Notes: a model not told the origin generated them from the letters alone. A stretch of DNA of 64,000 nucleotides from Candidatus Nanoarchaeia archaeon (GCA_028279765.1 JANQND010000022.1:26149-90148), one strand, 5' to 3'; positions 18,244 through 63,700 are shown, numbered from the stretch's first letter. Numbers and translations: made by a program.

Positions 18244-18255
18244 GGTGTATACTTC

Positions 18256-19152: not shown

Positions 19153-19190
19153 GTTTCATCCTGCTCTTTGCAAGAGACCTATATACATAG

Positions 19191-34943: not shown

Positions 34944-35597
34944 TTATTTCTGCTTCCTCTTCTTCTTTGCTCTGCTCACCACTGTCCAGATTGTTCGGTC
35001 ATCCTTGCCTATCAGCCGGGCAATCTCCCGATTACTCATTTCGTGCTCCTCTCTGAGATAAATACACAAGTGCTCTAAAATACTCAAGGACCGATCAGCA
35101 AAAACGCTAAGGGGGACAAGTAATTGATTCTCTGCAAGCCTGCCAAACTGAGCTTTGAATTGTGCAGGGCTAATTTTTTGCTGCGCGTTGTGCAGTGTAG
35201 TCCAGATAGTAGTGGGATCCCTATCCAGAAGAGCAGATATTTGTTGCTGGCTCAAAAGGAATTTTGTGTAGATATAGAGAACAAGTGCTTCAAGAGGGCT
35301 CAGGGAAGTATTAAATAGCCCAACAGGGACACTCACATATTTCTCCCGTTGATGCAGGAAGGTAAAAAGCTCCCTAATGCCAAGATCAGAAGCAGAAGAT
35401 AAAGAAGAGAAGAGGTTCTCTAATCTATTCAGCCGTTCCTGTTCCTCTACATATACCTTTCCCAGGCGCTTTCTCTTTTCCTCTTCAACAATGTGCATCA
35501 TGAAAACAGCGTATTCCTCCTTATTCCAAGATAAACTACTAGAGTCACTTTGTACTGCCTCCTCTCTTCGAGCGGACAAAATAAATGAACCATCCAA
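34944..35597 (-). CDS. transcriptional regulator with two tandem sigma-70 region-4/LuxR-like HTH segments
   Basis: Two repeated units: LEALVLYIYTKFLLSQQQISALLDRDPTTIWTTLHNAQQK and LSILEHLCIYLREEHEMSNREIARLIGKDDRTIWTVVSRAKKK, followed by a basic KKRKQK tail. The true start is probably the internal Met (MMHIVEEE, about 35501), which avoids overlap with the upstream gene. Confidence 0.55.
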   Translation of the reverse strand: MDGSFILSARREEAVQSDSSSLSWNKEEYAVFMMHIVEEEKRKRLGKVYVEEQERLNRLENLFSSLSSASDLGIRELFTFLHQREKYVSVPVGLFNTSLSPLEALVLYIYTKFLLSQQQISALLDRDPTTIWTTLHNAQQKISPAQFKAQFGRLAENQLLVPLSVFADRSLSILEHLCIYLREEHEMSNREIARLIGKDDRTIWTVVSRAKKKRKQK

Positions 35598-39700: not shown

Positions 39701-42700
39701 TTCTGTGAATCTGTTTGAAGTAGAGGCATTTGTTAAGAGCACTCCACTCCTTGAAGGAGCTAAAATCGCTTCCCGGATGAAATTATTATTCGAACTGGAA
39801 CTAAGATACAAGCCGTAGTCACTATGAGTAAAAGTATTCTGGCTTAACGTATTAGAATTTGATCCACTAACTAAATATACCCCGGCAGATAAGCTGTTTG
39901 GCGCGGTAAGATTAATAGTGTTCAGCGAAATATTGGTACCAGTGGTGCTATTTTGGGCTATTCCAAATACACTGAGATCTGATGAAGAAGCTGAAGAAGT
40001 GATATTAAGAGTGTTATTATAAACAGTATTATCCTGGATCAAGGAGCCAAAGTTTTGCACGAGATAGATTCCATAAGCTGAACCAGTTGAGGAAGCCTCA
40101 ACAGTATTGTCGACAATAGAGTTTAAGCTGATAGTAGTTCCAAGTGGTTCAGTACCATTTCCAAGGAAATAAACTCCATATGCTGATCCAGAAGAAGTTG
40201 AATTGAGCACAATGCTATTAGATTGTATAATATTATTCTGAGCAGGATCTCTAGAGGAGAATAGATGTATTCCATAAGCTGAGGAGCTGGCTAATACATC
40301 AACAGTGTTATCAGTGATGGAATTGCCACTGGTTTCCAAGTCATCATTCCTCACATAAATTCCATATCCTGATTGGGAAGCAGAGTAAATCGATAGGGTG
40401 TTATTGTTCACAATATTATTGCTACTCGCATTATTAACTGAGGAGAGATAGATTCCGTAAGAATTGCTGCTAGATTCAGTTGAGTTCCATCTAATCGTAT
40501 TGTTAGCTATCAAGAGACCCGTTGAGTCTTGAGTATAAATTCCGTATGCAGGATTCAGTACGGATGAATCAAGAGTGTTGTTAACGATGAAAGAATCCCG
40601 AACGTTTACAAGATTGATGCCTCGCTCGAAACCAGAAATTAAAGGAATATCTCTAATCGTTAGATTATGTCTCGTACCAGTCGTATTAATTGCGGTACCT
40701 GACCCATTTCCGGTAATAGTAAATCCGTTTCCGCTTAAGGAAATATTATCAGCAGCGATCAATAAGCAGTTGCCCGCACCAGAAATGTTCCGGAGCAAAG
40801 TATAATTCTTTCCAGGGATATCTAAGGTATCGCCGCAGGCAACAGTCGACTCCATAGTAATAGTTACGAAGTTTGGATCAACACGATTCGAAGTAATATT
40901 AGCAATAACTGAAGTTGTTTCTAAAGGGGATTTAATAGAAGTAAATGTATGGTTGTTGTACCAGGAATAGGCACTATCATCAGTCTGGTAGTATTCTGTA
41001 ACATTGAAGGACACCAGGCCAAGGAGTGACGTGTTTGTATTAAGATATACTATGCTGCTAACATTCGATACAGATACGTTTGCAGAGGGGACAACACTAG
41101 TATTAGTTTGGTTCACAAGGACATCAACGTACCATTTACGGATGATTTCTTCAGTTCCGGTAGAGCTAAAGTCAATGTCAGCATAGCTTACATTAAGGAA
41201 GGTGTTGTTTGTTGCCTCAGAGGATCCGTCTTGGGTATGCACATACACATCCTGCGCACCGGTGTTATTCATGATGATATCCTTGAACAGGTTATGAGAG
41301 CTAACGGATACACCGCTATGGCCATAAATATAGAGCCCATAGTTCTGGCTATTGTTGATAGTAATGCCTTCAAAGAAGCTATTCTCAGATCGCGACAAAT
41401 ACAGGCAGCCTTCGCTTGTGGAGGTGCAGTTCCACAAATCAATATTACGTGCAGTAGTGTAATCAGCAAGGTTAACGTACAGGCCAGATTTGTTATTAGA
41501 GTACAAAGTAGCGCCGTCTACGTGGCTGTTCTCAACAGAGTTAAGATAGATTCCATAATCAGTATTCAGGTTTGCAGTAATCGAAGAAAAGTTAGTGTAG
41601 TGCGAATTTGAACCCACAGAGAATCCTGAGCCACCGTTTTGGTTTGAGGTTAAATTATAGAAGGTGTTGCGTGTCGAAGTGAGGAGGGAGACACCGTGAG
41701 AGCTCGCACGGGTAACGCTCAGGTTTCCAATAGTATTCTCCGAACTACTACCTACCAGGATGCCTATTGATCCCCCTTCAAAGGTGCTTGCAGAAATATT
41801 ATTGTACTGTGAATTTGAGAGGTGTATTCCTGTTGAGGAACCAATCGAAGTGAGGTTTTTGACGGAAGTGTTGTACACTGTATAAAGGGATACACCCACT
41901 TCATTTTCATTAACAGACACATTGCTGATTACTGAAGCGTTGCTGCGGTAGAGATAAATTCCTGGAGAGTTGCTATGACTTAAGTTCAGATCAACTATAG
42001 TAATATTATTGCATTCTGTGCAGGAGATAAAGCCAGCATTGGGTGTTGTCTGGGGGCTATAGGTATAGTCAGAGAGAGATTCATTAATATATACAGCGTA
42101 AGAATGATCGACAGTGATTAGGCGGTGAGTGTTCCCACTTCCGCCAAAATAGTTCAGGCCGATCTCAAGGTTGTACGTGTTATTACTCAAATTTGCATTG
42201 ACAATAGAATTGTTCGATCCAAAGTCTAGGACAAGCCCTACTGAATTATTCAGCGCTACAATACCATCAAAGGTGTTATTGAGCGCTGAAGTAAATGCGC
42301 CTACATAGACTCCGGGGCCGGTATTATGCCTGACAGTAATATTGTAAAATTTATTGTAATTAGCGCCAATAAACAAAGAGATTGCTCCGGAGGAATAAGT
42401 GTTGTAGTCTGCAGTAAAGTTTGTTAGTGTGTTATGTGTCGAATCAGCGATAAAAAAAGCATATGTATTCGAGCTTGAAATGATATCAGTATAATTATTG
42501 TGGCGAGAGCTAGAGGTGGGATAGAATCCGGTTGACTGGCCAGAGGATTCTACATTTTCAAAAAGGTTTGACGAAGACGCAGTAAGGTATGCTCCATAAG
42601 TATTTGCACTGATATTCGTGTTAAGAACCTGAGAAGCACTTACATTATTGAGATAGACTCCGTATCCACTGCCCTCCGTATTTTCTGTGATTTTGCTATT

Positions 42701-45700
42701 ATTGATAAGGGTTCGATATCCCTGTACATGAATGCCATAATCAATATTCTTTCGAATAGTGGCATTTTCGACCAAAGTATCATTTCCAAGGATTTGCATT
42801 CCTCCATAAGCCTCTTCCAAAGTGGAGTCTCTAAACTCAAAATTAGAAGTATTAACCTGGAAAATAAATTCATAAGTCTCGTTAGTGGCATTTATGAGCG
42901 ATTGGTTCACAGACATGCTTGCGGAATCCTGTACATAAATTCCTACATTTTGGTCACCGGTGGCATTCATGCGAACCTCACAATCCAGAACATTAAAGGT
43001 TCCGGTAACGGAGATATTGAGGTGTGCAACAATGCAGTCAGTATACGAACTGGAGCAGGAGGAGACAACATCATCATTGTTGACGGTACTATACAGTGAA
43101 CTGCAGGTCTCGGTTCCGGTAATATTAATCCAGTCGTTGGAGAAGGAAACACTACTGGACTTATACGTAGTAAAGTGAGTAACGTTAAAGAGCAGAATTG
43201 AAGATGCGAAACTCAGGTTCTGGCATATGCCTGAAGGGCAAAGGTCAAAACTTCCGTCATCCTCGAAATCAACCAATATGCTCTGGACAATTGACCCGAG
43301 GTTATTCAAAGTGATGTTTGCACTGGTATTCAGTCCTGGGTCTTTAGTCGAATTTACGAAAGCGCTATTTGACGAAATACTAATGACATTACTGAGATTA
43401 TCTCCAAAAGCATAGAGTGAATCGTTTATCCATCTGATTTTTCCGTGGGTGTTCACGATCTCAAGAGAGGAGCCGTTGAATTGGTACTCAGTAATTTCGG
43501 AGTCCTCAACATAATAATCCAAAGGAGTAGAGGAAAAGGTATTATTGATAATGATTGTATTAGTTGAGTTAGTAATATTAAATCCACTCAGGTCAGAATC
43601 CTGTATATCAAGACCCTTAAAGAAATTTTGTTGGGACGAGCTTCCTAAATAAACTGCATTCTTTTCCATGTGCTTGAATGTACCACCAGTGAAATTGTGG
43701 CTGCTTGCATTGGTCAGGTATATACCATAGGTAGAGTTGTACATTTCATTTTCAACAAAAACGTTTCCTGCATTAGAATTCTGGCTATAGATGCTTGCTG
43801 TCAGTGTCGATGGTGCAGTAATATTAATCGTGTTGAGAGAAACATTTCCACTTTGCTTTGTTTCAAGCATATAAATTCCGAAGGTATTAAGTGTCCCGAC
43901 TGAATTGGAAGAGGAAATGTTGATCGAGTTATTGTAAACAGTGGAGTAGGCTTGAGATGCACCTATATTATTGAAAAGAATTCCTTGGGCATTACTTCCA
44001 GCAGACTCGAGGTAATTATGTTGCATAGTTGTTGAGTCTATCGATGCAGAACCGGTGGTAGCCAATACAATTGAGTAGGCGGATGCATCTTCAGCATAAA
44101 TAGAGTTGGAATCAATGAGGGTATTATTCATTGATGTTCCCGAAGGATTGAAGAGATAGACCCCAAAAGCACTGGAAGTTCCGTCAACAGCAATATGATT
44201 TTTGATTATTTCATTGGAGTCAATAGAAGATCCTGCAAGGCCATCTAAATAAACTCCGTAGGAAACAGACGAAGAGAGCTGAATGGTATTGTTCGCAACG
44301 GTATTATTACTGGAAAGGGCAGAGCCAGTCTCGAAAGTAACACCAAAAGCAAAGGTACCAGTTGAAGAGTTCAACAGATTATCCAGTATCCTGTTATATC
44401 GATTAACTCCCCCCGCGGTTCTAAAATACACCGGATAACCAGACCCAACGCCTTTGCCATCAAGAATAATAGTATTATTAGTGAGATTATTATATGATGA
44501 AAGGACAGTAGTGTTGATATAGATTCCGTGCGTAGTAGTGGAGAGAGAGGAATTCCTAGTAATAGTATTATTTTCGACAAGGTTATAGTTCGAATCTTTT
44601 AGATAAAGGCCAGAGAGGTCGCTGCCCGTGGATATAAGAATGGAGTTATTTAAGATCAATGAATTATTGACTCGCTCAAAATAAACTCCTCTACTAAGGT
44701 TAATTATTCGATTAAAATTCTTCACCGTAAGGTTCATTCTACTACCGGTATTATTGATTCCATAATCCAGACCGGAACCATCTCCTGTTATGGAATAGCC
44801 ATTGCCATTAACAGTGACATTGTCAGCATAGATAGTAAGGCAGGTTCCGCTGGTAGTCAGGTCATTCTGAAGAGTGTATTCTGTGTTTGGATCCTTGAGT
44901 GGCCTGCAAATAGTAACATTAGTCCCGGTCTCAAGGCTTACTTCCCGTAGTTCAGTAGAGTTTACGAAGCCAGAGCGGTCCTGCGTGTGAGCCCTGAAAG
45001 AATATGCGCCGTTTGTAAGGTCGGTGAAGTTTCTCGCAAAGTAGTGAGTGGACTGATTAGCGTACAGCATTTCGATTTCTACAGGAGTAAGTGTCCTGTT
45101 GAAGATCATCAGGTCATCAAGAGTCGCATTAAGGTAAGCATCGGTAGCGCCTCCTCTTCGACCAATAAGCAGAGGTTGAGTGTTAGGGACAAGCCAGGTT
45201 ACATCACCACATTCCCCAATTTCTTTCCCGTTCACATAATGGGTGACATTCCCTGAGATAAAGGTCATGGCCCCATGCATCCACTCATCCATATCAAATT
45301 GAGTTGTAGTTATCGTACAGGCTGTTGCACCGTTATTTGAGCCATATATCATCGCCCTATCACCAGAGTAGGATTGATGGTGTGTATAAATTCCAAGCTG
45401 ATAGGCACCAGTAGTATCTGCCGTAGTAGGTGTCTTGCTGAAGACATATGAAGTTGCTGTACCATCACTTTTCTGATAAGGATACGCCCACCAGGAAACC
45501 GTCCAGTTATCGTAGAGATCTAAGGAATCATGATCTTCAACTTGCAGATAGTCAGTAGACGGGCCGTCACTGAAGCGTACACCTTTTCCAAAGTATCCAT
45601 CATCTACCTGCACTGCAGAGCCGTACTTTGTAACAGTGTGATTATAGCTGCTATAATCCTGGAAATCTCCGGAGCCGTTAACATCCATTCGAAGCCATAG

Positions 45701-48700
45701 GGACAAATCATTATTGAAATCAATAAATGCCATAAGGGTGTTCGTGTCATTTGCAGTAATGTTGATTGGGATAAAGTTCTGAGAAAGACCTGAACCATTG
45801 GGAGGGGTTGCACCAACAAACTCCAAAGTTGGACGAGTAGTATCAACGGTAAAATTGAGCTGAGCTGAATCTCTGTTTCCGGTTGCATCAACCGCGTGTA
45901 CTGTATAATTATAGTCCTTTTCGACAAGCCCTAATAGTTCTCTTTCTAGGTGGTATTTTGAAGCATTATAGAGGGCCTGGATTTCAGTCTCGTTCAGTTT
46001 TCTGTCAAAGGCAAGGATTTCATCAATTCTTCCGTCAAAGAAGTCATCATAGGGTGCAGCCCCATGTTGAGCGCCAATGGTGGTGAAAGCAACAGACTGC
46101 TGCGATCCACTTTCAGTTATGTTTTGGGTCAGTGTACCGTCAATATACATTTGGGTCCAGTCAGCAGTAGGATCTGAAACAATCGCCACGTGAGTCCATT
46201 GTCCTGTAGGAATCGAGTTAGAGCTATTGACATAGAGGCTACTCCCTGCATCATCACTTTGATTGGACTTCAAAATACCTCCACTAACAAATTGCAGGTT
46301 ATAAGAATCGCCTAATTTATCATCCGTAGAGAGAATAGTTCCGGTTGTAGCATCTGGATAAATCCATAGCGAAAGGGCTCTAATCTGGCTTTGATCTGTA
46401 TCATTGATATAGTCGCCGGTCCCGTCAAAAGTAAACGCTCTTCCAAATATTCCATCTGCAGTCTGGCTCGCATCTCCCTGTTTCGATCCATTATCTCCAA
46501 ATCCAGAAATGTCCAAAGGCTCGCCGCTTTCGTTAATATCATCCATAGTCATCCAAAAGGTAAGATTATCATCAAAGAATGCGTAAGTTGGAGGGATATC
46601 ATCTATAATGGTAGCATTTAGTATAGCCGAGGTATTGATAATAAACTGATCGTTTGCTGGCGAAGGGTCAACAAAAGTGATCTCAGGGGCATAAAAATCG
46701 CCAAGGGTAAAGATTCTCTCTTCTGTAGAGTTGATATATCCATATACATCCTTTGCATATGCTTTGACAGAATAGTTTCCTGCTCGAAGCCCGGTAATAT
46801 TGGCAGAATAGTTCAGAGGGCCTGTGTTGAGATAGATCGCTTGCACTTCCTCTTCGCTTAGGCCCCTATCAAAAATAAGAACTTCATCCAGTGTTCCATC
46901 GACAAGGTTAGTCGGAGTAGGATGGGATCCAATGGATAAATAGCCAGAGCCGGGCTGGTAGATAGTAAACGTCGTGTTAAGGCCACAAATCTCGACACCG
47001 TCTCTAAAAGTTCGCATGTGAGAGCCATTAAAAGTGACGAAATAATGGTGCCATACTCCCGCCTCTGCTTGACCGGTAGCTGTGCAGGAGTTAGCCCCGG
47101 TTGATGGACCACGTATTTGAGTTACAATATCACCATCCGTCTCAGAACGTAAGAAGTACGTTCCTCCCTGTGTTGATCCAAAGTTGATAAAATCCATATT
47201 ATTTGCCAGATCATCTAGTTTTACCCACATACCGAAGCTTATTTCATTCAATGGGCTAAGCGAACTATCATAAGGAACTTCGATATAATCCCCCGATCCC
47301 GCACCATCAAAAACGAATCCCTTACTAAAATACCCAAGATCAGTCTGTTGCGCATCATCCTCTGGTGTTCCGTTATTTCCATAAGTACTTCTATCTATGA
47401 CAAGGGAAGGATTGCTTTGGGATCCAACAATTTGGTCCATATCCATCCAAAGGACAAGAGAGCGATTGAAATCAATAAACGAGTAATAATTCCGTGGAGA
47501 GGTAACACTCACATTGATTATTGGAGAAGCATTTTGCAGGGAATGATGAACAGGAGTAGGGTCAATAAAGAAAATAGGAGGATACTGTGAAAAAACATGA
47601 ACCAATCTGCTTGAGAGTGCCTGAACGTTTCCGAAAGTGTCCTGGCTGTATGCACTGAACGAGTAGTTGCCATCTGATAGCTGCGTAAAGTTTCTCTCTA
47701 GGTATGTTGTCGAAGTATTTGCGTAAAGAGCCAAGATTTCTTCTGCTGAGAGTGAGCGGTTAAAGATCATAATATCATCGAGTGTTCCGTTGAACGCCCT
47801 TGTCGCAGAACTGCCAAACATGCTGCTGATAATCAGGTCATTCCCATAATCAATAAACCCGTACGTGTTTGTGTTACAGTCTGCAAATACTCCATTCAAA
47901 TAAATACAAATATCTGACGAGTTCCAGGTTGCTGTTACTAATTCCCAGGCATTTGTAGTAGTATCTGAAACAGATACAGAAGCGTAGTTAGTTCCGTTTC
48001 CTATGAAGAGCCTATAAGAATTACTAGTGTAATGGCCAAAGTCAAGTTGTATAGTGGTAGCAATGCCGCCTAAAGATTTAGTAAGTATTCCTCCATAAGT
48101 GTCTAATTCGTGATTATTGACCCATGCAGAAACAGTGCCTTCAGGCTCAAAGCTTGAGAAGTTTACGTTTCCTAACGTAATTTGATCATTATCACCATCA
48201 AAATTAAATCCCTTGCCCAAATAGCCAGAGGTATTCACTGTTGCATTTCCAACAACAGTCCCGTTATTCCTCCCCGTGTAATCAAACACATGAGTACCGT
48301 TCTCATCGTCCATACGCCACCAGGAAACAAGCGAATCATCAAAATTAATGAACGTTGAAATATTATGGAAATCAGTACTAGTGATATTGACATAGATGGA
48401 GTTATTAGTCAGTATTTGGCCATCTGAAGGTGTGGGACTAACATACGACATGGTCGGAGCAGTTTTATCTGTGGTAGCGAATCTTGTTTCCGTAACATTG
48501 ATGTTTCCCGCCTTATCCTGGCTATAGGCCTTATAGTAGTGATGTCCCTCAGAGAGGCTACTATAGTTAATATCGAGAACTCTTGAAGATTGATTCGCAT
48601 AAAGCGCTTCAACTTCTTCTGCACTTAGTGATCTATTGAAAATCATCAGATCATCAAGGGTTGCGTCTAAGTATGCTGTATCATCCCCTACTCCGATATC

Positions 48701-51700
48701 AACAGCCAGGTTGTTTGTTGCAATACACGATTCTGATCCGCTAACCTCAAACACACCATCAATATAGATTCGGGTATTCGTTCCATCCCACGTCCCTACT
48801 ACATGATGCCATTGCGAATCATTGATAATAGAATTACTATTTATCTCAGTAAAGCCACAACCTTCATCTCCACCGTAAACCCCAAATTCTGCAAGGCCAT
48901 TTAATTCAATATTCAATCGGTAGCCAGATGATGAACTGCTTTGTTTGTCCATAATCGCTCCTTGACCATCTGCAGTTTTCACCCATGCGGTAAGCGTGAG
49001 TTCTGTACCGTCAATATCAAGAGAGGCAGAATCAGGAACTTCAATGAAATGCTCATTTGATTCGTTAAGGAGTGCTCCATCTCCAAGAAACCCATATTCA
49101 GTAAATTCAGTGTTGTTTACTATTGTTCCGTTATTTCGTCCTAAATAGTCATAGATGTGAGAAGAATTCCTGTCGTCCATACGCCACCAGGAAACCAAAG
49201 AGTCATCTAGATCAATAAATGTTGAAATGTTATTGCTATCACTGCTCGAGGCATTTACAATAAAGCTATTGTCAGATAGAGAGGAGGCATTGGCAGGAGT
49301 AGGATTAACAAAAGAGATCGAAGGAGCAGATTGGTCAGTAGTAATACTTCTGGTTTCTGTGAAATTAATATTTCCAGCGGTATCCTGAGCGTACGCAGTA
49401 AAAGAGTGTTTTCCTTGAACAAGAGAAGTATAGTTTCTACTAACATATTTTGTGGAAGAATTCGCATGCAGTTCCTTAATTTCAGAAGCAGACAATGTAC
49501 GGTTAAAGAAGAGCACATTGTCGATAGTTCCGTTAAAGAATTGGTTCGTCGCTGAAGTCCTAAATGCTCCGATCAGGCCATTAACTAAAGAGGATGGATT
49601 TGAAGCAGACTCAAAAGTCTTATCTAGTGTCGCGTTAAGGTAAATTTTGCCTGTCCAGGCACCAGAAGAGCCATTTCGAGTGACTGCAACGAAATTCCAG
49701 GCATTTCTTGCCAGAGTCGCGTCTGAAAAGTTTATTGCCCAGTCACCAGTAGTGCCCCAGATAATCCCGGCAGTATTCGCTGTTCTTCCAATATCCAAAC
49801 CAAACTGAATCAAACCACTGTTGTCTCCAGTCATTGCAACCCATCGTACATTGTTTGTTGTGTTAGGTTTGATCCAAGCAGCAATCGTTGCATCTCCGCT
49901 TAAGTTAAGGGATCGGTCAGTACCTAGATCAACGTAGTCACCGTTGCCGTCAAAATTGTATCCTTCTCCGAAATAGCCTGAGACAGTTTGGGTGGAATTG
50001 CCGGCAAGCGTTCCATTATTCTTTCCAAGATAATCAAACACATGTGTCCCATTATTATCATCCATTCTCCACCAACCAACAAGAGAGCCATCAAAATCAA
50101 TAAATGCAGAAACATTCGAAGAATCATTGATGGAAGTATTAACGAATATCCAGTCATCTGCAATTATCGTTTTATCAGAAAATGTAGGGGGTTCAAAAGA
50201 GATAGAAGGAGAAACATTCTCCTCTCCTACACCGCTTCCGGTCAGGTTGTCTACCCGATAATGAGGCCCATCAAGGGTCACCCGAATACCGCTCTTCCAG
50301 GAGCCAAGTTCTGCGACACTGAAGTCAATCTTATTAACACAGGAAGTATTGACATCACTGAGTCTTGTTGCATTGGGACATACATATACCCCGGATCCAT
50401 GATGATTAGGCATGAAGAGGGTGTGGTTGGAATAAATCCCTGAAGAACCTCCAATGTTAACCACTGTTTTTTCATCACTAGAATTTATAACAAGACCACT
50501 CAGGTTAACCTGGCCCTGGCTAAACAATCCAAACAACTGAAGGCGCAAGCCATAGGTAGAATGACTAAAATTGAGGTACTGGTCAGAGTTGTACCTTCCG
50601 CCATTAGTAAGTACACCATTGACAGATCCTGTAATCGTATAGTTACTGGTATTGAGTTCAGAAGGGACAATGAACGCTTCACGAACAGCTATCTCTCGAA
50701 GCTCAGTAGAGTTCACATTTCCAAACGTATCCTGAGCATAGGCTCTAACGTGATGAGATCCGAAGGATAGGTTAGTGAAATTGTAGTGTGCATATTTTAT
50801 CGAAGTGTTAGCATAAAGAGCGATGATTTCGTTAGGGGAAAGCGACCTGTTAAAGATCATAACATCATCTAGAGTCCCGTTGAAGTCGCCGGTTGCGACA
50901 ATACCGGCAAAGTAGCCTACATAGAGATCTAGGGGCTCAGTCAAGCTGTTTGTAGGGTCAGCGCCGGATGCTGCCAGCTTTCCGTCCACGTACAAAGTAA
51001 GATTGGTTGCGTTTCGTGTTGCGACAAAAAGGTGCCAGTTGTCGTCTGAATAATCTCCCGAAGTGGTTACTACGGACTCGTTTGCATCATTTGCATCAGC
51101 TAACCTGCAGTTAAAATTTCCGTCTGCTTCTATTTCGCAGTATACTCCATCTCCATTATATGCATTAAAGAGTACCTGCCTTCTGGGGTCATTCTTTGCT
51201 TTCGCCCAGATGGAAAGGGTAAATTCTTCGCCAGACGCAAATGGGTAATTATTCATCCCGCTCAGGTTAATGATATCATCATTTCCATCTAAAAGAGCTC
51301 CTTTTCCAAAATAACCGGAACTATTAATGGTTATATCTGATGAAAGCGTCCCATTGTTTCTCCCCATATAGTCAAAGACATGTGTACCGTTATTATCATC
51401 AATGCGCCACCAGGAGACCAATGAATCATCAAAATCAATAAACAGGGAAACATTTACAGAATCCGTAGCGGTCACATTCACAAAAATACTCTCTGCAGGA
51501 GCAACCGAATTATTTGCAGGAGTAGGGAAAGTAAAATTGATCGTGGGGAAAGCAGAGTCAATGAAAAAAGAGTATATGCCCGTTTCCTGTTTGTTATTTC
51601 CCGTGTCGTTGCAAAAGAATTGGACAGTATGGCTTCCTTGCGCCATGGAGCTATTAGTAAAGTTGAAATAATAACTGCCTTCTTGCTGCATCGTGGTATT

Positions 51701-54700
51701 CGGCGCACTATCCAGACTAAAGCTGCACCAGCTCGCTTCTCTCGATGTTGAAACATTGAAGAGAATGGCACTGGTGTTGTAATCCGAATTATTCAAAGGA
51801 GAGTGGACAGCAATAGAATAAGTGCAGCTAGTAATATAGGTAGGGTCAGGACTAAAAGTTGCCCCTGAGAAATCAGAAGAGCAGTCAGTATAATCAAGCG
51901 CCAGAGTGGTGTCAGTATTTGTTCCTGTTGCATTATGGAGTCCTGACAGGTTAAGGAAAGTGTCCTTGAAAGTAATATTTCCACCATCATAACCCGTGCT
52001 CGTCGTATTCATTGAAGTAACGATAGAAGAGGTAGCATTGAGATAGATTGTCCCACCTGAGCCTGATCTCGAAGGTGTTGCGCTGGTAGAGGTCCCACCG
52101 CTTGCATCTAAAACGCCGCTGAAATTGATAGCTCCCGATGAAGTCAGCGAAATACGGCCGCCACCGCCTGCATCACCATTATTGGTCGAGATTCCTCCTG
52201 AAGCAGTGAGGGAACCATCTCCTAAAATAGTGCGTGCCTCAAGCCATATTGAACCCCCTGATCCATGGTCGTTATTCCCGTCATAACTTCTCATATCTAC
52301 CGTTCCATTAACGATAATAACTCCGGCATCAGTTTGCAGTTTAAGCCCGGAGCCACCATTGCTGGTATCTCCACCGCTTCCCAAAGACAGGGGCCTAGAC
52401 ATATTTCCATAAAGTACGCCCGCGCCACTCCCTCCGTTTCCTCCATAGCTTCCGCCTGATCCGCCTGAACCGGGACCTACATCGGTAGGAAAGCCAAGCC
52501 CTCTTCCATCAAACTTGCTACTTGCTTTCACAGTTATGTTTCCAGAAGCATTTAACCACAGTCCCCTGCCATCTGCTGTCGTATTATAACAAATAAAGCC
52601 AAGATAAATGCCCGAATTACCAAAACAGTCCCCATAAATAGTTATATTATGTTCGCTGCCGAGTACAAAATCTCCTTTAACATTTAGCACCTCTCCCTCT
52701 CCAAAATTTCCTCCCAGAAGCCCTATGGAGCCATTAACTTCCCAGTTGCCCGGCCAGGTATTATTGGTAAAAGTCAGTGTTCCAACGCCTCCCTGCCTGC
52801 TTCCAGAAGTGGATCCGGTAGTGCCGGAGGCTGTACTAATAGTTCCCGTTAAATCCATGTCCTGCGTATAGCCAAGCCGTATTCTTCCACCGCCGCCCGC
52901 AGCACCGTTATTTGATGAGCTCCCCCCCGAAGCATCTAGCACTCCTTTTCCTGTAATAGTTTGAGCAGCAAGCCAAATACTTCCTCCTGATCCTCTATCA
53001 TTAGACCCACTGCTGGAGTACATAGTAATAGATCCATTGACTACAATATCCCCCGATAGAGCCTTAAGAGCAATACCAGAAGAGCCGGCAGCATTATCCC
53101 CTCCACTGCCAAGGGAAGTGGGTGCTGTAGCATTTCCATAAAGAATATTCGTTGAGCCCGGGAAAACGGTACCACCATATCTTCCTGACTCTTCACCCGA
53201 GGAACTAGGCCCTACATCAGTAGGGAATCCTAACCCAATTCCATCAAGTGTTGCACTTGATCCAATGGTAACGTTACCATTAAGGCTTCGCCACTCCTGC
53301 CCATGGCCATCACCGGTAATATTTCCCTCGATACCAGAGAAATCAATCAGGCGGTAATCACCGTAAACATACAATGTTCCATTATTGATAGTAATACTAC
53401 CCGTGCTATTCCATAATTGTGTCCCGTCATTTCTGCCGGTCCAGTTCCCTTGTGCAAAGAGAGGAAGGAAATACAAAGATCCACCCCCGTAACTGCTATC
53501 TACAGTAAAACTGGCAAGATTTTGTGGAAGAGTATTATTCGTGATGTTAACATCGCCCGTCCCTGAGCCATTAAAGAGAATATCCTGTCCTGCTGTGGGG
53601 ACAGAACCCAAGCTCCAGCACGATGCATTAGTAAAGTAGTTTTTCGTATTACAGATCCAGTAATTAGTACCTGAGAGGATAACACTTCTTGTCAGCGTTG
53701 AATTCACATTCCCTGCTTTATCCTGAACATAAGACGTGAAAGTATGCGTCCCCGTACTTAAAGAAGTGAAATTACGCTGGATAAATGCTGATGATTCATT
53801 GGCATAAAGCCCCTTAATTTCATCTTCCGATAAGGATCGATTGAAAAGAAGAATATCGTCAATGGTCCCATTGATAAGATTGCCAAAATCCACCTGCGAG
53901 GAATCCCCATCAACTAAGTCCCCAGCGTTTACAGAGCTCTTAATCTCAGAATCTACATAGAGAGAGACATTATTATCCTTAAAAGTGACTGCAACATGAT
54001 GCCACTCTCCCACGGAATAAAGAGAAGTGGCAGAATCAAAATTCTGTGCCCCTGTTGTGTTCTTATAGTCAATTCTGAATCTTCCAGCGGTTCTGGTGCG
54101 TACAGTATAAGAAGAATCGCTATTCTGATAAAACTGGTCAAAATTATCAGTATTGTCATCAAGATTGAACCAGAAGCTCACCGTCATCTCAGACTCATTG
54201 TGGTTAGGCGTAGTTCTCAAAAAATCATTTACTCCGTCAAATTGATAAGCCTTTCCGAAGTATCCTGCATCTGTTGAGGCGACACCCCCTGTCGCAGTGC
54301 CATTGTTTCTTCCCAGATAATCTACAGTACCATTACCGTCATCGAATCTCCACCAGGAAACCAATGAATTGTCAAAATCAATAAAGCCAGAGACATTACT
54401 TCGATTATCTGCTACACTCACGTTAATGTGAATACTGGAGCCGGACAAAACCTCGTTATTACTGGGAGTAGGGTTAACATAAGAAATATTAGGAATGGAA
54501 GTGTCAATTACAACAGATCTGCTCGTTGATTGAACAACGTTTCCTGCAGTATCCTGTCCATAGACAGTAAAGGAGTATCCCCGCTCAGAAAGTCCTGTCT
54601 GATTAACACCAAGGTACGCAGTGGACGTGTTTGTATAGAGAGCCAAAACCTCGTTTGAAGTAAGTGTCCTGTTAAAGATTAAGACATCGTCAATAGTTCC

Positions 54701-57700
54701 ATTCCAGTTCTCTCCCGAAGTAATCCACCCCCCTATAATTGCATTGACATTTTCAGCTAAGTCAACATTATAATGTGTTCCAATATCAAGAGCAGATCCG
54801 CACGTTTGGCCGTCAAGGTAAATCTGAGCATTTCCACTTCGGTTTGCAACAACAAGGGCATGGTGCCATTGATCGAGTGTTAAGAATGCATTACTGCAGG
54901 TTGTGCCAGTTCTCTCTGATCCATTGCCCATCTGAAAATGAAGGTCATCAGTATTAGTCATCCTAAAATTCCACCCTTTCTGTCCTGCTGATGCTGCGCC
55001 TTTCGCCACTAAAGCAGGATAAGTTACTGTTGAATTTCCGGATCGCTTAGCCCACAAGGAAACAGTAAAGTCGACGTTTTGGGCGAATTCAAAGTCAGTA
55101 TCATCCCCCAGGTCAAGATAGTCTCCATTGCCATCAAAAGTAAATCCTTTGCCTAAATACCCTGCGGTAGTTTGAGAAGCGTCTGCTACAATAGTTCCGT
55201 TATTTCTGCTCGTGTAATCAATTACCGCTGTACCGTTATAGTCATCCATACGCCACCAGGAAACCAGTGAATTGTCGAAATCAACGAACAATGAACTATT
55301 CATTTTTCCATCTATAGCGGTAGCATTAACAAAAAGATGATTCTCCGGCTTCCAGGCACCGTTTTCAGGTGTTGGAGCTGAAAGGGTGAGATTTGGGGCA
55401 GTAGTATCAATAGTGACAAACCTGCTTGCCACACTATTCACATTTCCTGCAGTGTCCTGTGCATACGCTTTGAAATTATAAAGTCCATCAGTAAGCGAAG
55501 TAAAATTACCAAATACCGATCTCGAGGAAGTATTCGCATAGAGTGCAGCAACTTCATTTGTAGTCAGAGAGCGGTTGAAGAGCATAACATCATCAATGCT
55601 TCCTGTTAAGAATCCAGCTCCTGTGTTATATGAGCCAAAATACATGTCATACGGGCCGGAGACGTTGAAATCTGCACCACTAGTGGTACTTCTGTCAAGT
55701 GCCCCATCGGTATACAAATACATACCACTAGCATTTCTTACTCCAACGACGTGGTGCCAGGAATTGTCCATAATCACTTTATTAGAATTTCCTGTGCCTA
55801 CTTGGTTGCTTCCATTTGCAACACGGAAAACAACAGTGTCCGTTCCTGAATTAACATAAATATTGAATCCTGCATTGTAAGTTCCAGCTATTTTATTGTC
55901 GACAATTGAGGTATATGCTCCGGGCACTCCGCCCTTTACCCATACAGAAACCGTAAAAGGATCTCTCTCAAAGTCAAACCGCCCATCTTCTATGATACGT
56001 ACATAGTCTCCAGCACCATCAAAAGAGAATGCCTTACCCAGATAGCCATCTTCCACTTGGGCTGCATCTCCATTGCTGGTTCCATTGTTGAACGCCAGAT
56101 AATCGATTACATTTCCGCTTGAGTCCGTATCATCCATACGCCACCATCCAACGAGCGAGTCATTGAAATCAATAAACACGGAGACATTATAAATGTCTGA
56201 AGCAGTTGCGTTCACAGCAATAAAACTCTCTGACTGAACTGAATCATTTGAGAGAGTAGGAGCAACATAGGATATGGAGGGAAGCACAGTATCAACATAA
56301 AAAGATACAGAACTGCTGTTTCTGTTCCCTGCTGTATCAACAGCATGAGCAGTAAGATTATGCTGCCCATCTGAAAAGCCGGTCAGGTTTGCTTCATAAT
56401 TAGAGGAGCTTGAATTGTACAGTGCTGCAATTTCTGATGCAGATAAAGACCGATTGAAGACCAAAATTTCGTCAATAGTTCCGTTGAACTCGTTTACTGT
56501 AGTAGTGTATTGTGTTCCGATGAGCTCGCGCAGCGTACCAACTTCTCCTTTTTTCGGGTACACACCGGTTAGAGATGGAATCTCGCTGCTATCAAAAGCA
56601 CCATTGAGATAAGCGCTGTGTACTGTTCCATTCCATGTGCAAACAAAGTGATACCATTCATTTGCGTTAATAGCATGGAATGCTATCTCATCGGTTGCGC
56701 TTCCATTGCCGATTAAGCAGCGTACCCAACCTGAAGCGAGGTGAAGATCATATGCATGATAGATACTTTGGGAGCTAGAATAATAACCATAAATGCCGTC
56801 AAATGAAGAAGAATCATTAGCGTATACCCATGCAGAGATAGTATAATTGCATCCCTCGCAAATCAAAGGCTCTGAATTATCAGAGCGAATCTGAACAGCA
56901 TCATCAGCTCCGTCGAAAGCAAACCCTTTTCCAAATTTACCATCTTCAGTGACATTCGTATGACCTAATCGGGTTCCATTATTGGCATAAGAACTTAAAT
57001 CAAGAGGATGTTGGGTACCATTCACATCATCAAAGCGCATCCACAACAGCAAGTCATTATCTACATCGACAAAGCTGTAGTGGTTACTGCTGTCATTAGT
57101 AGATAAATTGGCATAAATTATGTTCGAATTGTGGTAAGTATTGTTAAGGGGCCTATCAAAACCAATAAGCGGAGTTGCATTATCCTCCCCTACTCCACTT
57201 CCTGTAAGGTTCTCAATCTTATAGTATCCGTTTTCGAGACTTACCTTAATACCATTTTTCCAGGTAGACAAATCAGAATGTGCAAAAATAATTTTGTTTG
57301 GACAAGAATTATTGATTTCTGTCAGTTTTGTTGCGTCGGGGCAGACAATGATTGCCGAATCACGATGCTTGCGTAAAAAGAGTGTATGATTTGAAGCAAT
57401 ACCGGTAACAGACTGGGTGTCAACTACCGTTTTATCAGTCGAGGCATTAATGATAAGTCTGCTCAGGTTTACTGCCTGCGAAGAAAAGAAGCCAAATAAC
57501 TGCAATCGAAGGCCGTCGTTTTCTGATGAAAAATTCATGAACTGGTCAGTAGAATACGTGCCGCCGGAAGCCAGCGTTCCATCTACCGAACCTACAATGG
57601 TATAATTACCTGTAGAAGCATCAGTAGGTACAAAGAAAGAGACACCAGTAGATACCACTCTTACGTCAGTGGAGTTCACGTTTCCTGCGGTGTCCTGAGA

Positions 57701-60700
57701 ATAGGCATTGAATGAATGCGAGGTAGAACTTAAGGAAGTGAGGTTCGCCGAAAGGTATTTGAGGGAAGTATTTGCATACAGCGCATCAATTTCTGAGGGA
57801 GATAATGTCCGATTGAAAAACATCACATCATCCATAGAGCCATTATAATCGTAGGTCGACGGATATCCCCCAAGATAATACGCGCCTCCTGTATCGCCAA
57901 TTGCTCCATTAACTGACCAGATTGCACTGAATGATGGATTTGAACCATTCGTATAAACTACCAGCTGTGTGCCGTTAAAAGTTGCTGCAACATGTGTCCA
58001 CTTTCCTATAGGGATGCCGCTAGTGGATTTAACTGCCAGTCCGTTATTAAAGGTGCCATTATATATTCTGAACTCAAATTGGTTCAGGCTATTAAAGTCC
58101 AGATACGCAAGAATAGAACTCAAGCCTTGTCCAAAGAGCCTGCGGTCGATATCATTGTCCACAGAGGGTCTAATCCAGGCACTCCAGGTAAAGTTTGTCG
58201 CAGAAAAATTGAGGCTTTGGCTGTGCGCAATGTCTACCCGATCAGCGTTGCCGTCAAAAGCAATTGACTTTCCAAAGCGCCCTGAGTTATTAACTGCAAC
58301 ATTATTGACTAAGGTTCCGTTATTCCTTCCCATATAGTCAAAGATATGCGTGCCATTATTATCATCCATGCGAAGCCAGGTTACCAAAGAGTCTTCAAAA
58401 TCAAGGAAAGCCGATACATTTCCTAAGGCATCAGAAGCACTGGCATTTACCGTGATGTACGTTTGAGCGATGGATGAACCGTTCGCTGGGGTAGGGCCTA
58501 CAAATGAGATCGAAGGAAGAGTAGTATCAACCGTCACACTCTTAAGAGCAGTGGAGTTTACATTTCCTGCCTGATCCTGTGTATACGCTCTAAAGGTGTG
58601 TGTGCCGTCGGTCAGTCCTGTGAAATTATTAGCGAGGTGTCTTGATGAAGTATTTGCATACAGTCCTTGTACTTCTGAAGCTGAGAATGATCGATTAAAG
58701 ATCATTACATCATCAAGGCTTCCATTGAACCTATTAGAGTTGCCATGATACTGTCCCAGAAAACCATCTGATGAAGGAGAAAAAGCTGCTCTTCCTATAT
58801 AGCTCTGCTCTACTCCATTAATATAAGTTACAGTGTTTGAAGTATTCCAGGTAACCAGATAATGCGTCCAGACATTATTTGAAATCGAGTTAGCAGGGCT
58901 TGAGTCACCTGGTCCTACTATCCTAATCGTATTTGCTGAAGTAAGGTAAATCGAAGGGTCATGTGAGGTTCCCTGTGAAAAAGGATACTCGTTATCATCT
59001 CGCGGATTTGCATAGAACCAGAAAGAAATCGTTGCGGAAAGGTTACTAACATTATTTCCGAATTCGTTTATCTCCATATAGTCGTCAACACCATCAAAAT
59101 CAAATGCCTTTCCAAGTTTTCCATAGCCCTTCTGAACTGGATTTCCAAACAAAGTTGCATTGTGGTTTCCAAAATAATCTAAAACATCAGAGCCGTTAAA
59201 GTCATCCATCCTCCACCAGGAGACTAATGAGCCGTCAAAATCAATGAATGTGGAGACATTTCCAGTGTCGTCTGCCGAAGAAACATTAACAACTAAGGTG
59301 CTATCAGAAACAGCAAAGGTCCCGTCGGGAGTATGAGAAGTAAAATTAATTTCAGGTTTAGTCTGATCTATTCGGACAGATCGAGTTGCTCCTTCAAAGA
59401 TATTTCCAGCAGAATCCTGCGAGTAAGCAGTGAAGGAATGGACTCCTTCAGCAAGATTGCTGAAATTGGTCTCGAAGTAACTTGATGAAGTATTCGCATA
59501 GAGCGCAAGAATTTCTGCTTCAGTTAAGGTTCGGTTAAATATAAGCAGATCATCAATCGAGCCATTCCAGCTATCAGCATCAGTACTTCTACGCCCAATA
59601 AAGCCAGATTCATCATTCTCAAATGTTCCGCTCTGAGATGAAATATCTACTGTTCCCAAATAAACTCCATCAATATACAAGCTAATATTATCCCCATAAA
59701 AATACCGAACAGTCCACATTCTCCAGTTATTTCCAAGGCTAGAACTTATTGCAGTAACAAGATTAGTAGTTCCGTCATCAAATACTGCTTCAGGATTTCC
59801 AGAACTGTCCTGATATATAGCCCACCAGCTAGCACTTGCGCCCCCTCTACCGCTACTATAGATGTAGTTCCAGTCATTGTCAACAAGAGATTTAGCCCAC
59901 ACGTTGACTGTAAAATTCTGCGTAGTAAAATTCAAGCTCTTGTCACTACCCACATCAACATAATCAGCATTTCCATCAAAGCTGAAGGCCTTACCAAAGT
60001 ACCCATTCTCAACCTCATAAGCATTTCCGGTGATAGTTCCATTGTTCTTCCCTGTGTAATCAAGAATATGTGTCCCGTTGTTATCATCCATTCTCCACCA
60101 GGAAACAAGTGAATCATCAAAATCAACAAAAGTAGAGACATTGCCTGAAGTATCTGCTGCCGAGACATTCACCAAAACAGAGTCATCAGAATAGAAAGAG
60201 TCAGCGGTCGCGCTAGGGTAGTCGTAGCTCAAAGTAGGATTCGTGTTATCAACGAGAACAGTTCTCAGAGCTGTCGCATTAACGTTTCCTGCCAGATCCT
60301 GTGCATACGCTCTAAAGGTGTGTACACCATCGGAAAGCCCGCTAAAGTTCGCACCGACAATTCCTGAAGAAGTATTCGCATAGAGTGCCTTGACTTCTTC
60401 ATCACTAAGTGAGCGATTGAAAATCATCAGATCGTCAATCGTTCCATTGAAACGATTAGCAGTAATGCTTCCTTCCCTTCCGATAAATGAGCCACTAATA
60501 GTTAAATCATTAATGGAGGAAATAGTAGAGACATCTGAATCAAAGTTAACTCCGTCAAGATAATACAGGTAGTCAGAGCCATTGAAGATAAATCCGACAT
60601 GATGCCATTCATTCTCATTGAGAGTAATAGTTGCAGAAGTAGGGGTAAATCCTGTCGAGCCATCCCCAGAGTGCACACTATAATATACGGAGCTGGAAGG

Positions 60701-63700
60701 TTTTCTGATAGAGAGTGCAAGGCCTTTATTAGTATCATAAGCTCCCCAGAGCACATTATAACTTTGATGGGCAGCAATGTTCACCCACCCAAAGAGAGAA
60801 AGTGAGTTTGCATTACCATAGATAGAAGTCCCCATATCTGCATAATCAGTATTTCCATCCATAGTAAGGCCATTTCCGAAATAGCCGGAGTTGGCAGTAG
60901 TCGCACTATCAAGGAGCGTACCGTTCTGCCTGCTATAGTATTCTATGATATGCGAGCCGTTCGCATCATCCATGCGCCACCACGCAACTAAGGAATCATC
61001 AAAGTCAATGACGGTTGAAATATTCCCCACATTATCAGCTGCAGAAACATTGACGATCAGAGTATTATCAGAGACTACTGATCCATCAGCAGGTGTTGCG
61101 GAAGTATAGTTCGCCTCAGGTGTAGTTAGGTCAATGCGCAGCGTCCTATTAGAGCTGGAGTTAACATTGTTCTGGATATCTTGAGCATAGACGGTATAAC
61201 TGTGAACTCCTTCTGAGAGGCTGGTAAAATTGACTTCTAGGTATTGTGTCGAAGTGTTTGCATACAGTGCCCTTACTTCTTCTTGGGTAAGTGAACGATT
61301 GAACACCAGAACATTATCAATAGTTCCGTTAAAGTGGTATGTTCCTCCATTGCTTCCAATAAGAAGTTGCTCTGGAGCGTTAAAGTCCGTATTATAGGCT
61401 CCCCCGGTCATGTTGTAGAACTGCCCATCCCAAAAACAGTGATAGCCAACGGTAGCATTCCCTAAAGGAGTGCATGCGAGGAAGTGCCACTTACCTACAT
61501 CTGCAGTAATTCCTGAAATATAAGTGGACAAAGAGCCCCAGTATAAGTAATTGTTAGCAGAATGGAAATAATAGGCCTGAGACTTTGTCCATCCGACATC
61601 ATTATCATAGATATATCCAATATATTGGTTCCTTCCAGCAGTAGAGGATAACTCGTTAAGCTTGTACCAGGCAACAAAAGTAGTAGTATCAGCTGCATCA
61701 TCTGATATTCCGCTAAATGAAGTATCCCTGATAATATCACCGGCTCCATCAAATTCGAATGCCGCACCTATTTTTCCATCACTCGTTTGGCTTGCGCCGT
61801 CAACTATGGTTAAATCGTTTCTTCCCATATAATCGGTTGGATTATTTGATCCATCAAGATCATCCATTCGATACCAGGAGACCAAAGAATCATCAAGATC
61901 CACGAATACGGAGAGATTTGATGTGTCGCTTGCAGTTACATTTAGTATAAACGAATTTTTGCTGCGATGTGAACCATCAGCAGGAGTAGGGTTAGCAACA
62001 GAAAATTGCTCAATAACACCGTCAGTCAAATTTGCAGTGAGTGTATTAACAATAGAAGACAAAGTAGGAGAGTAGAAGCTGTTTGATACATTCCCTGCAA
62101 AGAAAGTAAAGTTCAGGGTAATATTTGTCGATGCGGGGTCAATGGAGAATGTGTTCTGTCCTGTAAATACCTGATCAGTCGTATAGTACCAGCTCCCGGC
62201 ATAGTATCCAACTGTCAAATTGATAGAGCTGCCATACAATGCCTGATGGTCAGCTTTTACCACAACCTGGCTATTGCCAGAAGTAAAATTAAGGTTGGAG
62301 ATAATTTGCTCCCCACGCGGCTTGAAACGATCAGAGGCATTCAGATAGAGGCCCATCATTTGAGTTGCAGTGAGGCTGGTGTTAAACATCATAAGCTCAT
62401 CAAGGCTGCCATTGATAGTTCTTGCAGCCTGGGTAGTATCACTATTAGGATGGCCACCGATAGTCAGCACCCTATCCCTACTATTGGCAATTCCTCCTCC
62501 AAGATCATCCGAGCAAAGGAACGTTCCATTCATGTAGAGTGCATAGTCAGTAGAATTAATAGTGCCAGCCACATGAGTCCACTTATTAAGAGGAACGGCA
62601 ACACTACAGTCAATCAGGGTGTCAGTATAGCCATTTGCACTCAGCCATAAGTGATTAGAGCCTGCTTCAAGCCCCAGGTACCAATATACGGAGCCTTGTT
62701 GGAAAATATATTCTGTACCATCGGTATCATTTCGCAGATATATCCACGCGGAGAGCGTAATATTTTTGCCGGTGATATTAAAATCATCAGCATAGGCAAC
62801 TTCCAGGCGATCGCCGTTTACCAGATCCATTGCTCCTCCATACAATCCCGATGAAGTGTAGGAAGCGTTTTTTATCAGAGTCGCATCATGATTATTCTGT
62901 GAATAATCATAGGTAGTAACTGCGCTCGCATTCTCATCAAAAGGAAGATACAGAACTAAACGGTCGTAAGGAGCACTGTCAGAAATTTCCAGATGGGTAA
63001 AATTATTCTCGGCTGTAACGTTTATCAGGGTCGTATTCACAGAAACATCGCTAACAATCAGGGTTGGGTCAATAATATGGTCAAACTCCAGGTACGTTGA
63101 AGCATTGTCCAGATTAATAACCTGCAGATCAAATACATCCTGGCTGCCGTTCATTTCAGTCAGGTAAATAGTGTAGTAACTTTCATTTACTATAACAGGG
63201 AATTGTGCAATGAGCCGGGTATCGTTCTGTTCAAAGACCCTTACTGCTGTATTAAGTGATTCATTGTTACGCACATAAATCGTGATGTCCTTAGAGGGAG
63301 TAAGGTTTTCTTCAAACGTTACTCTGACATACTCCCCGTGGTAAACAGGTGTGCTCCAGTTGCCATCTTTTTGACGTACCTCAGGATAAATATCAGCAAT
63401 AAGACTTCTATTCTCTGCAAGGTGCTCTGCCTTAGTAATCAGAATAATTTCATAGGTCTGATTTGAAAGATGCGGGACAGTCCAGTAAATACGATCGATC
63501 AATGAATTATTGTTACGATCAATATAACTTACATTTTCAACGAGCTGCCGGGTATCATTCACAAGCCAGTATAATTTCACCGATTCTTTTCGTGAGTCGC
63601 GGATATCAGTAAACGACAAAATGTTAGTGTAGTGCACATCAGACTCGATAACAACCCTCTTTACTCCCTCTGTAACATTCTCCTCCTCCACACTGGGGCC

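Follow-up and report, generated by a model that had tools for sequence, protein, structure and literature searches.

DPANN archaea are an abundant group, for the most part uncultivated, whose members are believed to be attached to other cells, and giant proteins rich in laminin G-like (LamG) domains are standing candidates for the means by which they hold their hosts. In the literature, heavily N-glycosylated, strain-specific surface proteins of LamG/concanavalin A (ConA)-like type are presented as a hallmark of DPANN archaea and as predicted factors of host recognition or attachment (PMC5498576, PMC7443923, PMC7414124, PMC10266531). Lectin-like and glycosylated pectin-lyase-like surface proteins occur in a cultivated DPANN archaeon, and those of pectin-lyase-like type have been proposed to attack the host wall (bioRxiv 10.1101/2023.10.27.564410). 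Among the huge archaeal proteins in UniProt (at least 5,000 aa), Laminin_G_3 is by far the commonest domain, with a function that is "not understood", and a second architecture carries Big_13 / Big_3_3 (PMC11573180). We analyzed a 64,000-nt stretch of DNA (hereafter, the window) from a Candidatus Nanoarchaeia archaeon (GCA_028279765.1, JANQND010000022.1:26149-90148), ~42% of which is taken up by one giant minus-strand gene (36758..64000). Its product carries 17 LamG modules, and 16 of them belong to a repeating unit of ~290 aa that appears to be an immunoglobulin (Ig)-like domain with a LamG domain nested inside it. The giant protein is a new and strikingly large example of a protein kind that is already known, and by analogy with the proteins above, attachment to a host or to glycans is its likely role.

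The DPANN LamG proteins of arCOG07813 (Mia14 "ARMAN", Nanohaloarchaeota, Undinarchaeota, and Nanobdella) share with the giant protein the Laminin_G_3 family and the type of lineage and, in the available parts of their descriptions, have like it many N-glycosylation sites, strain-specific sequence, and a place in surface-gene clusters. The members described in those parts carry one to ~five LamG domains, whereas the giant protein has 17 in more than 9,000 aa; neither the Ig nesting nor the distal beta-helix modules reported below are among the features described there. The giant protein also fits the class of huge archaeal Laminin_G_3 proteins, although the commonest architecture of that class bears a single N-terminal LamG domain, or a few of them (PMC11573180), and not a 17-unit array. 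The nanohaloarchaeal SPEARE giants (SVXNc_0300, 9,409 aa; BNXNv_0298, 8,880 aa) are of similar size, likewise come from DPANN archaea, have Ig-like repeats that are extracellular, and are proposed to interact with the host, but they are described with a Sec signal peptide, beta-propellers, and a VirB4/TraG-like ATPase domain and as cell-bound, and they are not LamG arrays (PMC10266531). A relationship to SPEARE was considered and rejected: the unseen N-terminus excepted, the 9,019 aa contain no P-loop/VirB4 family in Pfam and no transmembrane (TM) segment.

Giant bacterial repeat adhesins (e.g., the RTX adhesins MpIBP, SiiE, and LapA) carry binding modules at one end of a stalk of tandem Ig-like (Big) domains; their extender repeats are plain, and frequently almost identical to one another, and the adhesins are secreted by bacterial type I secretion systems. 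The design logic, a long Ig-like stalk that projects binding modules from the cell, is shared, but in the giant protein every stalk domain bears its own diverged lectin-like domain. The same jelly-roll is found, at 11-25% identity to the giant protein, in neurexin-1 alpha (six LNS domains), laminin alpha LG1-5, and the clostridial HCN domain, and these eukaryotic LG/LNS and HCN folds bind glycans or proteins at variable loop edges. Eukaryotic LG arrays have EGF or no linkers and 5-6 copies, whereas the giant protein has 17 copies and a putative enclosing Ig domain.

The giant open reading frame (ORF), as listed (36758..63817, minus strand), has 9,019 codons counted from the first start codon at 63817, and the residue numbers below follow this count. 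There is no in-frame stop from 63817 to 64000, so the gene has at least 9,080 codons and an open frame of at least 27,243 bases (36758..64000), its 5' end lying outside the window. We place the giant gene on the chromosome of a DPANN archaeon of Woesearchaeota/Nanoarchaeota type, because the neighboring genes are archaeal housekeeping genes (aIF5B, Trm1, RtcA, and DUF460) and the nearest aIF5B relatives, at no more than 76% identity, include proteins named Nanoarchaeota or Woesearchaeota; the relatives of the LamG modules, too, are almost all in DPANN metagenome-assembled genomes (MAGs).

A reading made from the sequence only had placed sixteen LamG-like modules at 45300-62300, an interval that lies entirely within this ORF. 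Pfam Laminin_G_3 (PF13385; gathering cut-off, 27.6 bits), scanned against two overlapping pieces of the protein, matched 12 stretches in aa 1-4700 (E = 9e-217, 711 bits) and 6 in aa 4401-9019 (E = 2e-117, 389 bits); since one module was common to both pieces, these amount to 17 distinct modules, and the HMMER check suggested with that reading came out in its favor. A hidden Markov model (HMM) built from twelve clean units of the giant protein yielded 17 LamG cores between aa 287 and aa 6257 (45047-62959 in the window; E = 1e-29 to 1e-82). The 16 canonical modules, M2-M17 (cores at 45047-61921), fit the sixteen that had been proposed. The seventeenth, M1 (aa 287-495, 62333..62959, E 1.8e-29 with the unit HMM), is divergent, lies just outside the proposed interval on its upstream side, and has no flanking Ig halves recognizable to the half-domain HMMs described below.

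The W-W-R-M-D-D and DDxMIFNRSLSxxE motifs, noted earlier as conserved, were found in nearly all units (12 strict matches to LVSWWRMDD and 15 to IDDxMIFNRSLSxxE). Short identical patches of DNA between units are likewise present, and they are the codons of conserved motifs: the 15-mer CATACGCCACCAGGA, which is the reverse complement of the SWWRM codons, has 3 exact occurrences and 3 with 2 mismatches, compared with 0.04 expected. When the protein was compared with itself, as the same reading had advised, identity peaked at an offset of 294 aa (10.8% vs. a background of 7.1% ± 0.4%, ~nine standard deviations above), and DNA repeat families had start-to-start distances of 831-903 nt, most commonly 882 nt (i.e., 294 aa). 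The period of ~890 nt and unit of ~295 aa given before are thus close to these values, but the spacing is regular only within four runs (M2-M6, M7-M10, M11, and M12-M17), between which there are three longer spacings (~1340-1360 nt twice and ~2990 nt once) because other domains are inserted there. Tandem Repeats Finder detected no array, as the copies are too diverged for it.

AlphaFold2, supplied with an alignment of the 17 cores, produced a confident all-beta model with a C-terminal helix (predicted local distance difference test, pLDDT, 84; predicted template modeling score, pTM, 0.85), in which the two-sheet jelly-roll beta-sandwich of the Laminin_G_3 family is present. Foldseek against the PDB retrieved the HCN sub-domain, a lectin-like part of the tetanus and botulinum toxins (E ~6e-12, TM-score 0.77), and a profile search of PDB sequences was headed by 4qvs ("S-layer domain-containing protein", E 6e-26) and neurexin; similarity at the level of fold extended to CBM40, AbnA domain 4, and HCN domains. 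Given the model and the Foldseek and PDB profile matches, together with Laminin_G_3 scores above threshold, the predicted ConA/LamG fold, already proposed as LamG_3/ConA-like, is a solid assignment. From the model, we infer that WWRMDD and IDDxMIFNRSLS(xxE) form the first and last strands of the jelly-roll, and so would belong to the fold core and its junction with the Ig domain and not to a ligand site; the loops between them would be free to vary.

The connection between LamG domains had been described as an Ig-like linker of ~50 aa. It is Ig-like, but the stretch between cores measures 74-87 aa, has a D-x-T-x-P boundary mid-way, and appears to comprise two half-domains, the C-terminal half of one Ig-like domain and then the N-terminal half of its successor, each LamG being nested between the halves of a single Ig domain. 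We divided the inter-core stretch in two, giving a C-half (NFTxLSDGxHTFxAYAQDxAGNVN...VxxD) and then an N-half (TxP...VNVSAxD..NVSxFIDFDDS), and each was made into an HMM of its own. A C-half followed the canonical LamG in 16/16 cases and an N-half preceded it in 15/16. Where a run ends, an unrelated domain comes after the C-half, and where a run begins, its N-half lacks a preceding C-half. Because of this bracketing and these run ends, which would be unexpected for a self-contained linker domain, N-half, LamG, and C-half are taken as one unit. Across the giant protein and the ORFs of 58 related loci (see below), the gap from N-half to C-half is bimodal, either ~190-260 aa with a LamG or 26-43 aa without one, and the gaps from C-half to N-half are mostly 0-15 aa. 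The six short-gap cases, all from relatives, are ordinary, uninterrupted Ig-like domains of ~100 aa that are matched by both half-HMMs. An uninterrupted Ig domain read by eye in the giant protein (aa ~4005-4089) was missed by the half-domain HMMs and by Pfam and was set aside, so the argument from uninterrupted domains rests on the six in relatives. Big_13 (PF19077) scored 112.9 bits on the whole giant protein (cut-off, 27) in stretches that cover only profile positions ~64-102; within the former "linker", only the C-half matches, at the end of the profile, whereas the uninterrupted domains of relatives align with Big_13 in colinear order, albeit below threshold. An AlphaFold2 model of one complete unit (aa 1191-1484) reached a pTM of 0.86, with four strands in each half and pLDDT of 80-92 for the halves. 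Bracketing, run ends, bimodal gaps, the Big_13 alignments, and this model all point to the two halves being one domain. It is therefore well supported, though not proven, that the ~290-aa unit is a Big_13-like Ig domain in which a complete Laminin_G_3 jelly-roll replaces the central hairpin; that consecutive Ig domains would follow one another head to tail, with 0-15 aa between them, is graded alike from the gap lengths. Such nesting would give a stalk with lateral lectin-like heads and not beads on a string and may be an undescribed architecture.

The first run opens with M2 (aa 606-896, 61130..62002; Ig N-half, LamG, and Ig C-half) and continues through M3 (aa 898-1190, 60248..61126), the structure-modeled unit M4 (aa 1191-1484, 59366..60247), and M5 (aa 1485-1764, 58526..59365) to M6 (aa 1765-2056, 57650..58525), which closes it. 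The second consists of M7 (aa ~2203-2506, 56300..57211), whose N-half is too diverged for the half-domain HMM, M8 (aa 2512-2804, 55406..56284), M9 (aa 2805-3105, 54503..55405), and M10 (aa 3106-3380, 53678..54502). M11 stands alone (aa 4090-4377, 50687..51550). The last run is made up of M12 (aa 4536-4828, 49334..50212), M13 (aa 4829-5117, 48467..49333), M14 (aa 5118-5408, 47594..48466), and three diverged units, M15 (aa 5413-5703, 46709..47581), M16 (aa 5710-5985, 45863..46690), and M17 (aa 5993-6293, 44939..45841), the final unit of the array. All of these, like the other features of the giant gene given below, are on the minus strand.

The search for related loci was seeded with the 8 best junctions and run on species-representative genomes, 20 kb being fetched per locus. 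The junction motif led to 58 loci, almost all of them in MAGs of Woese-, Pace-, Nano-, Aenigm-, Nanohalo-, or Iainarchaeota, where the arrays have a spacing of 280-300 aa and up to 11 units within the fetched 20 kb. The unit profile matched 36,363 representative proteins at E <= 1e-30. Among the best 150 of these matches, proteins contained up to 26 LamG cores, 76 had at least one complete nested unit, and the longest protein listed was shorter than 8,000 aa; the maximum of complete nested units in one protein of this set was 8, vs. 16 here, a comparison biased by a profile made from the giant protein's own units. The giant protein was absent from the protein collections searched, in which the best unit match was 43% identical. 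It is one of the largest and most regular LamG-rich examples and leaves the general picture of these proteins unchanged; what is new is modest, namely a nested unit, glycosylation sites kept at the same positions, and a candidate partner gene downstream. The MAGs of eight loci (L009, L028, L038, L058, L011, L016, L034, and L054) bear the labels Methanosarcinales, Ignavibacteriaceae, Rickettsiales, Omnitrophota, or Saccharibacteria. These non-DPANN labels on DPANN-type LamG loci could reflect mis-binning into host or co-occurring bins, or genuine transfer.

Mean identity among the LamG cores is 32% for amino acids (20-42%) and 45% for nucleotides. When the cores were compared by BLAST with 158 foreign modules as well as with each other, the best match of 10 of the 17 was in another genome and not in their own protein. 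The longest DNA word common to any two units is 23 nt and occurs once, and only a handful of at least 18 nt are found. Since the cores are this diverged, share so little DNA, and are often closer to modules abroad, the array derives from old duplications with no concerted evolution, and would now be kept by selection on the fold and not by ongoing homogenization; the "ancient amplification" proposed before agrees with these values. Over long times, units have clearly been gained, lost, and shuffled, because relatives vary in the number and order of units and inserts. The 64-kb window contains neither tRNA genes nor a match to an Rfam family at gathering score, and no reverse transcriptase of the type found in diversity-generating retroelements was seen among the ORFs scanned; none of this supports the idea that a diversity-generating mechanism acts on the array.

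The array is interrupted twice by a domain of ~150 aa (copy A, aa 2057-2210, 57188..57649; copy B, aa 4378-4540, 50198..50686). The two copies are 54% identical and each lies between a C-half and the next unit; the domain is without a Pfam family and did not turn up in the 58 related loci. A Gly/Ser-rich cassette of 710 aa (aa 3381-4090, 51548..53677), for which neither a Pfam family nor a PDB sequence match was found, holds two "DG[IR]GLGFPTDVGP...GGSIWL...GGGGRI" sub-repeats and is probably a beta-solenoid. It is kept as a block of ~700 aa in the giant DPANN ORFs of loci L039, L009 (four copies), and L023 (41-51% identity), and has counterparts at 33-34% identity in L057 and L042. Beyond M17, four right-handed parallel beta-helix modules (aa 6294-8660, 37838..44938) match Pfam Beta_helix (PF13229) and NosD (PF05048), with 164 and 209 bits overall, above threshold, and with matches in each of the four segments; a PDB sequence search with the beta-helix module returned no homolog. 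The C-terminal 359 aa (36761..37837) are without Pfam family, TM segment, or anchor motif. At the other end, the N-terminal region within the window (aa 1-286 and 61 upstream codons, 62960..64000) has only a sub-threshold match to DUF1829 and no visible signal peptide, the true N-terminus lying beyond the window.

Composition suggests where the protein resides. There are 455 NxS/T sequons in the giant protein (5.0 per 100 aa), compared with 201 ± 12 in composition-preserving shuffles and 0.3-0.8 per 100 aa in its housekeeping neighbors, and the protein is acidic (D+E 904 vs. K+R 384). In the alignment of the units (44939-62002), ten positions carry a conserved sequon in 8 or more of the 16 units, among them VNVS (16/16), ANTS (15/16), NFT (15/16), FNR[ST] (14/16), and NNGT (14/16). 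Because of the 2.3-fold excess of sequons and their conserved positions, we infer that the giant protein is exposed at the surface, i.e., extracellular, and heavily N-glycosylated. The conserved FNRSLS motif is itself, in part, an N-glycosylation sequon.

Taken together, we favor a reading in which a giant extracellular DPANN protein, with an Ig stalk and lateral LamG heads, would serve multivalent attachment to a host or particle, and we consider this reading as a whole probable, albeit with substantial room for doubt. The Ig domains of the 16 units would be arranged in tandem as a stalk, and one LamG would project from each of them, rather like a bottle brush. The stalk would be broken by the 150-aa domain (twice) and by the 710-aa Gly-rich cassette, and would end in the four beta-helix modules and a free C-terminus, with anchoring at or near the unseen N-terminus or via the conserved type-I membrane protein encoded downstream. 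Such a stalk would stand out from a very small cell by a distance on the order of 100 nm, and its many diverged LamG domains would engage glycans or glycoproteins of a host cell or particle in a multivalent manner. At the distal end, the beta-helix modules would either strengthen adhesion or, like phage tailspikes, cleave surface polysaccharide. It is also possible, though we hold this only tentatively and with considerably less confidence, that the nested LamG-in-Ig bottle brush, glycosylated heads each with its own specificity, a membrane-protein anchor or docking partner, and the beta-helices make up a distinct cell-contact apparatus of DPANN archaea. If true, this apparatus would provide a molecular handle on how cells of Woesearchaeota type recognize and hold their hosts.

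Several points weigh against attachment by such a stalk. The proposed role in adhesion is drawn from fold, composition, and analogy, and the case for the two Ig halves joining in a single sandwich is made from sequence logic, pTM, and pLDDT; in fact, two of the five AlphaFold2 models of aa 1191-1484 were confident, while the other three had a mean pLDDT of 66-70. The uninterrupted Ig domains of relatives are colinear with Big_13 positions ~31-101 only below threshold (E 0.002-0.15). Finally, no TM-like segment was found in the 9,019 aa of the giant protein, and the N-terminus, a possible place for a signal peptide or anchor, is outside the window. The beta-helix modules could be lyases or hydrolases, and the LamG array a set of carbohydrate-binding domains that hold an envelope or polymer, with degradation as the main job, a reading that overlaps with attachment. 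Beta_helix and NosD matches in all four C-terminal segments are in keeping with it, as are the pectin-lyase-like surface proteins of the cultivated DPANN archaeon for which host-wall attack was proposed (bioRxiv 10.1101/2023.10.27.564410). However, no catalytic family was recognized, no catalytic residues were identified, and the beta-helix module lacks a homolog in the PDB; moreover, purely adhesive proteins commonly carry beta-helices too, and for a carbohydrate-active enzyme, 17 binding modules alongside four putatively catalytic ones would be an uncommon ratio. We therefore regard an enzymatic main function as rather unlikely. A structural coat, i.e., an S-layer-associated or glycocalyx-like sheath in which the LamG domains bind the cell's own glycans or one another, would agree with 4qvs, an S-layer domain-containing protein, being the closest solved structure by sequence (E 6e-26), with the extreme density and conserved positions of sequons, and with the clustering of the gene with others for sequon-rich or membrane-anchored surface proteins. 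S-layer proteins, though, are usually far shorter, abundant, and self-assembling, and a monomer of more than 9,000 aa, built of diverged modules and with no anchor in its visible part, misfits a lattice subunit. In addition, divergence between the modules equals that to modules of other genomes, which suits varied ligands better than one self-ligand. The coat thus appears less probable still, and we give it little weight.

The remaining explanations concern the array as DNA. In the sequence-only reading, the array was held to be still capable of recombinational expansion or contraction, and one might accordingly suppose a contingency locus, in which copy number still shifts by homologous recombination and valency varies within the population. 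The identical patches of DNA at motif codons might be taken in its favor, as might the differences among relatives in the number and order of units and inserts, which imply gain and loss over the long term. Nevertheless, a mean nucleotide identity of 45%, a longest common word of 23 nt that occurs once, no concerted evolution, 10 of 17 modules closer to those of other genomes, and the lack of an array detectable by Tandem Repeats Finder are not what a recombination-active tandem repeat would present, and the identical patches are motif codons. The claim of continuing recombination was consequently not borne out, and a contingency locus is highly improbable. Since giant, repetitive ORFs from metagenomes can be chimeric, we also considered a mis-assembled repeat or a decaying pseudogene, in favor of which nothing was found. 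The frame is open for at least 27,243 bases (36758-64000), the repeats are too diverged to collapse or chimerize, the residues of the fold core are kept in all units, and homologous arrays occur in dozens of independent assemblies, so that an artifact or pseudogene is effectively refuted and has a negligible chance of accounting for the array. Both the contingency locus and the artifact are contradicted by the data, and multivalent attachment by a LamG-bearing Ig stalk remains our preferred reading.

Directly downstream, a gene for a 413-aa type-I membrane protein with an N-terminal signal/TM segment and a C-terminal TM segment (35545..36786, minus strand) overlaps the stop codon of the giant gene by 29 nt. 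Its product has a paralog, a 433-aa type-I membrane protein encoded at 32896..34197 (minus strand; 27% identity, E 5e-37); neither protein has a Pfam family. In three related DPANN loci, L006 (12709-13665 and 14788-15747), L036 (8494-9510 and 10515-11510), and L045 (13121-14236), the LamG giant gene is immediately followed by genes for homologs of the 413-aa protein, often two in tandem. By this recurrent gene order, the 413-aa membrane protein is a candidate partner or anchor of the giant protein. The 413/433-aa pair belongs to a minus-strand cluster of surface-protein genes that extends downstream of the giant gene and also includes an HTH (helix-turn-helix) protein, small secreted proteins, and a second giant. 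This second giant gene (21917-31618, minus strand) encodes 3,233 aa with Big_9, He_PIG, and cadherin-like domains; its product, with a density of 4.9 sequons per 100 aa, has TM-like segments close to the N-terminus and is anchored by a TM segment at the C-terminus.

Three further features of the window were observed, all on the minus strand. A secreted protein of 274 aa with 19 cysteines (32001-32825) matches the Dictyostelium CTDC Cys-rich repeat (E 9e-12), an odd family for an archaeon, and weakly DUF4352. An ORF of 1,289 aa (7414-11283), for which there was no Pfam match, has a lipoprotein-like signal (…LALMLAAC), 23 cysteines, and a poly-Ser tail, and its sequon density is low, unlike that of the other large surface proteins of the window. 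Lastly, an operon for a MoxR AAA+ ATPase, a DUF58 protein, and a VWA/BatA protein (17308-20492) adjoins the surface-protein cluster.

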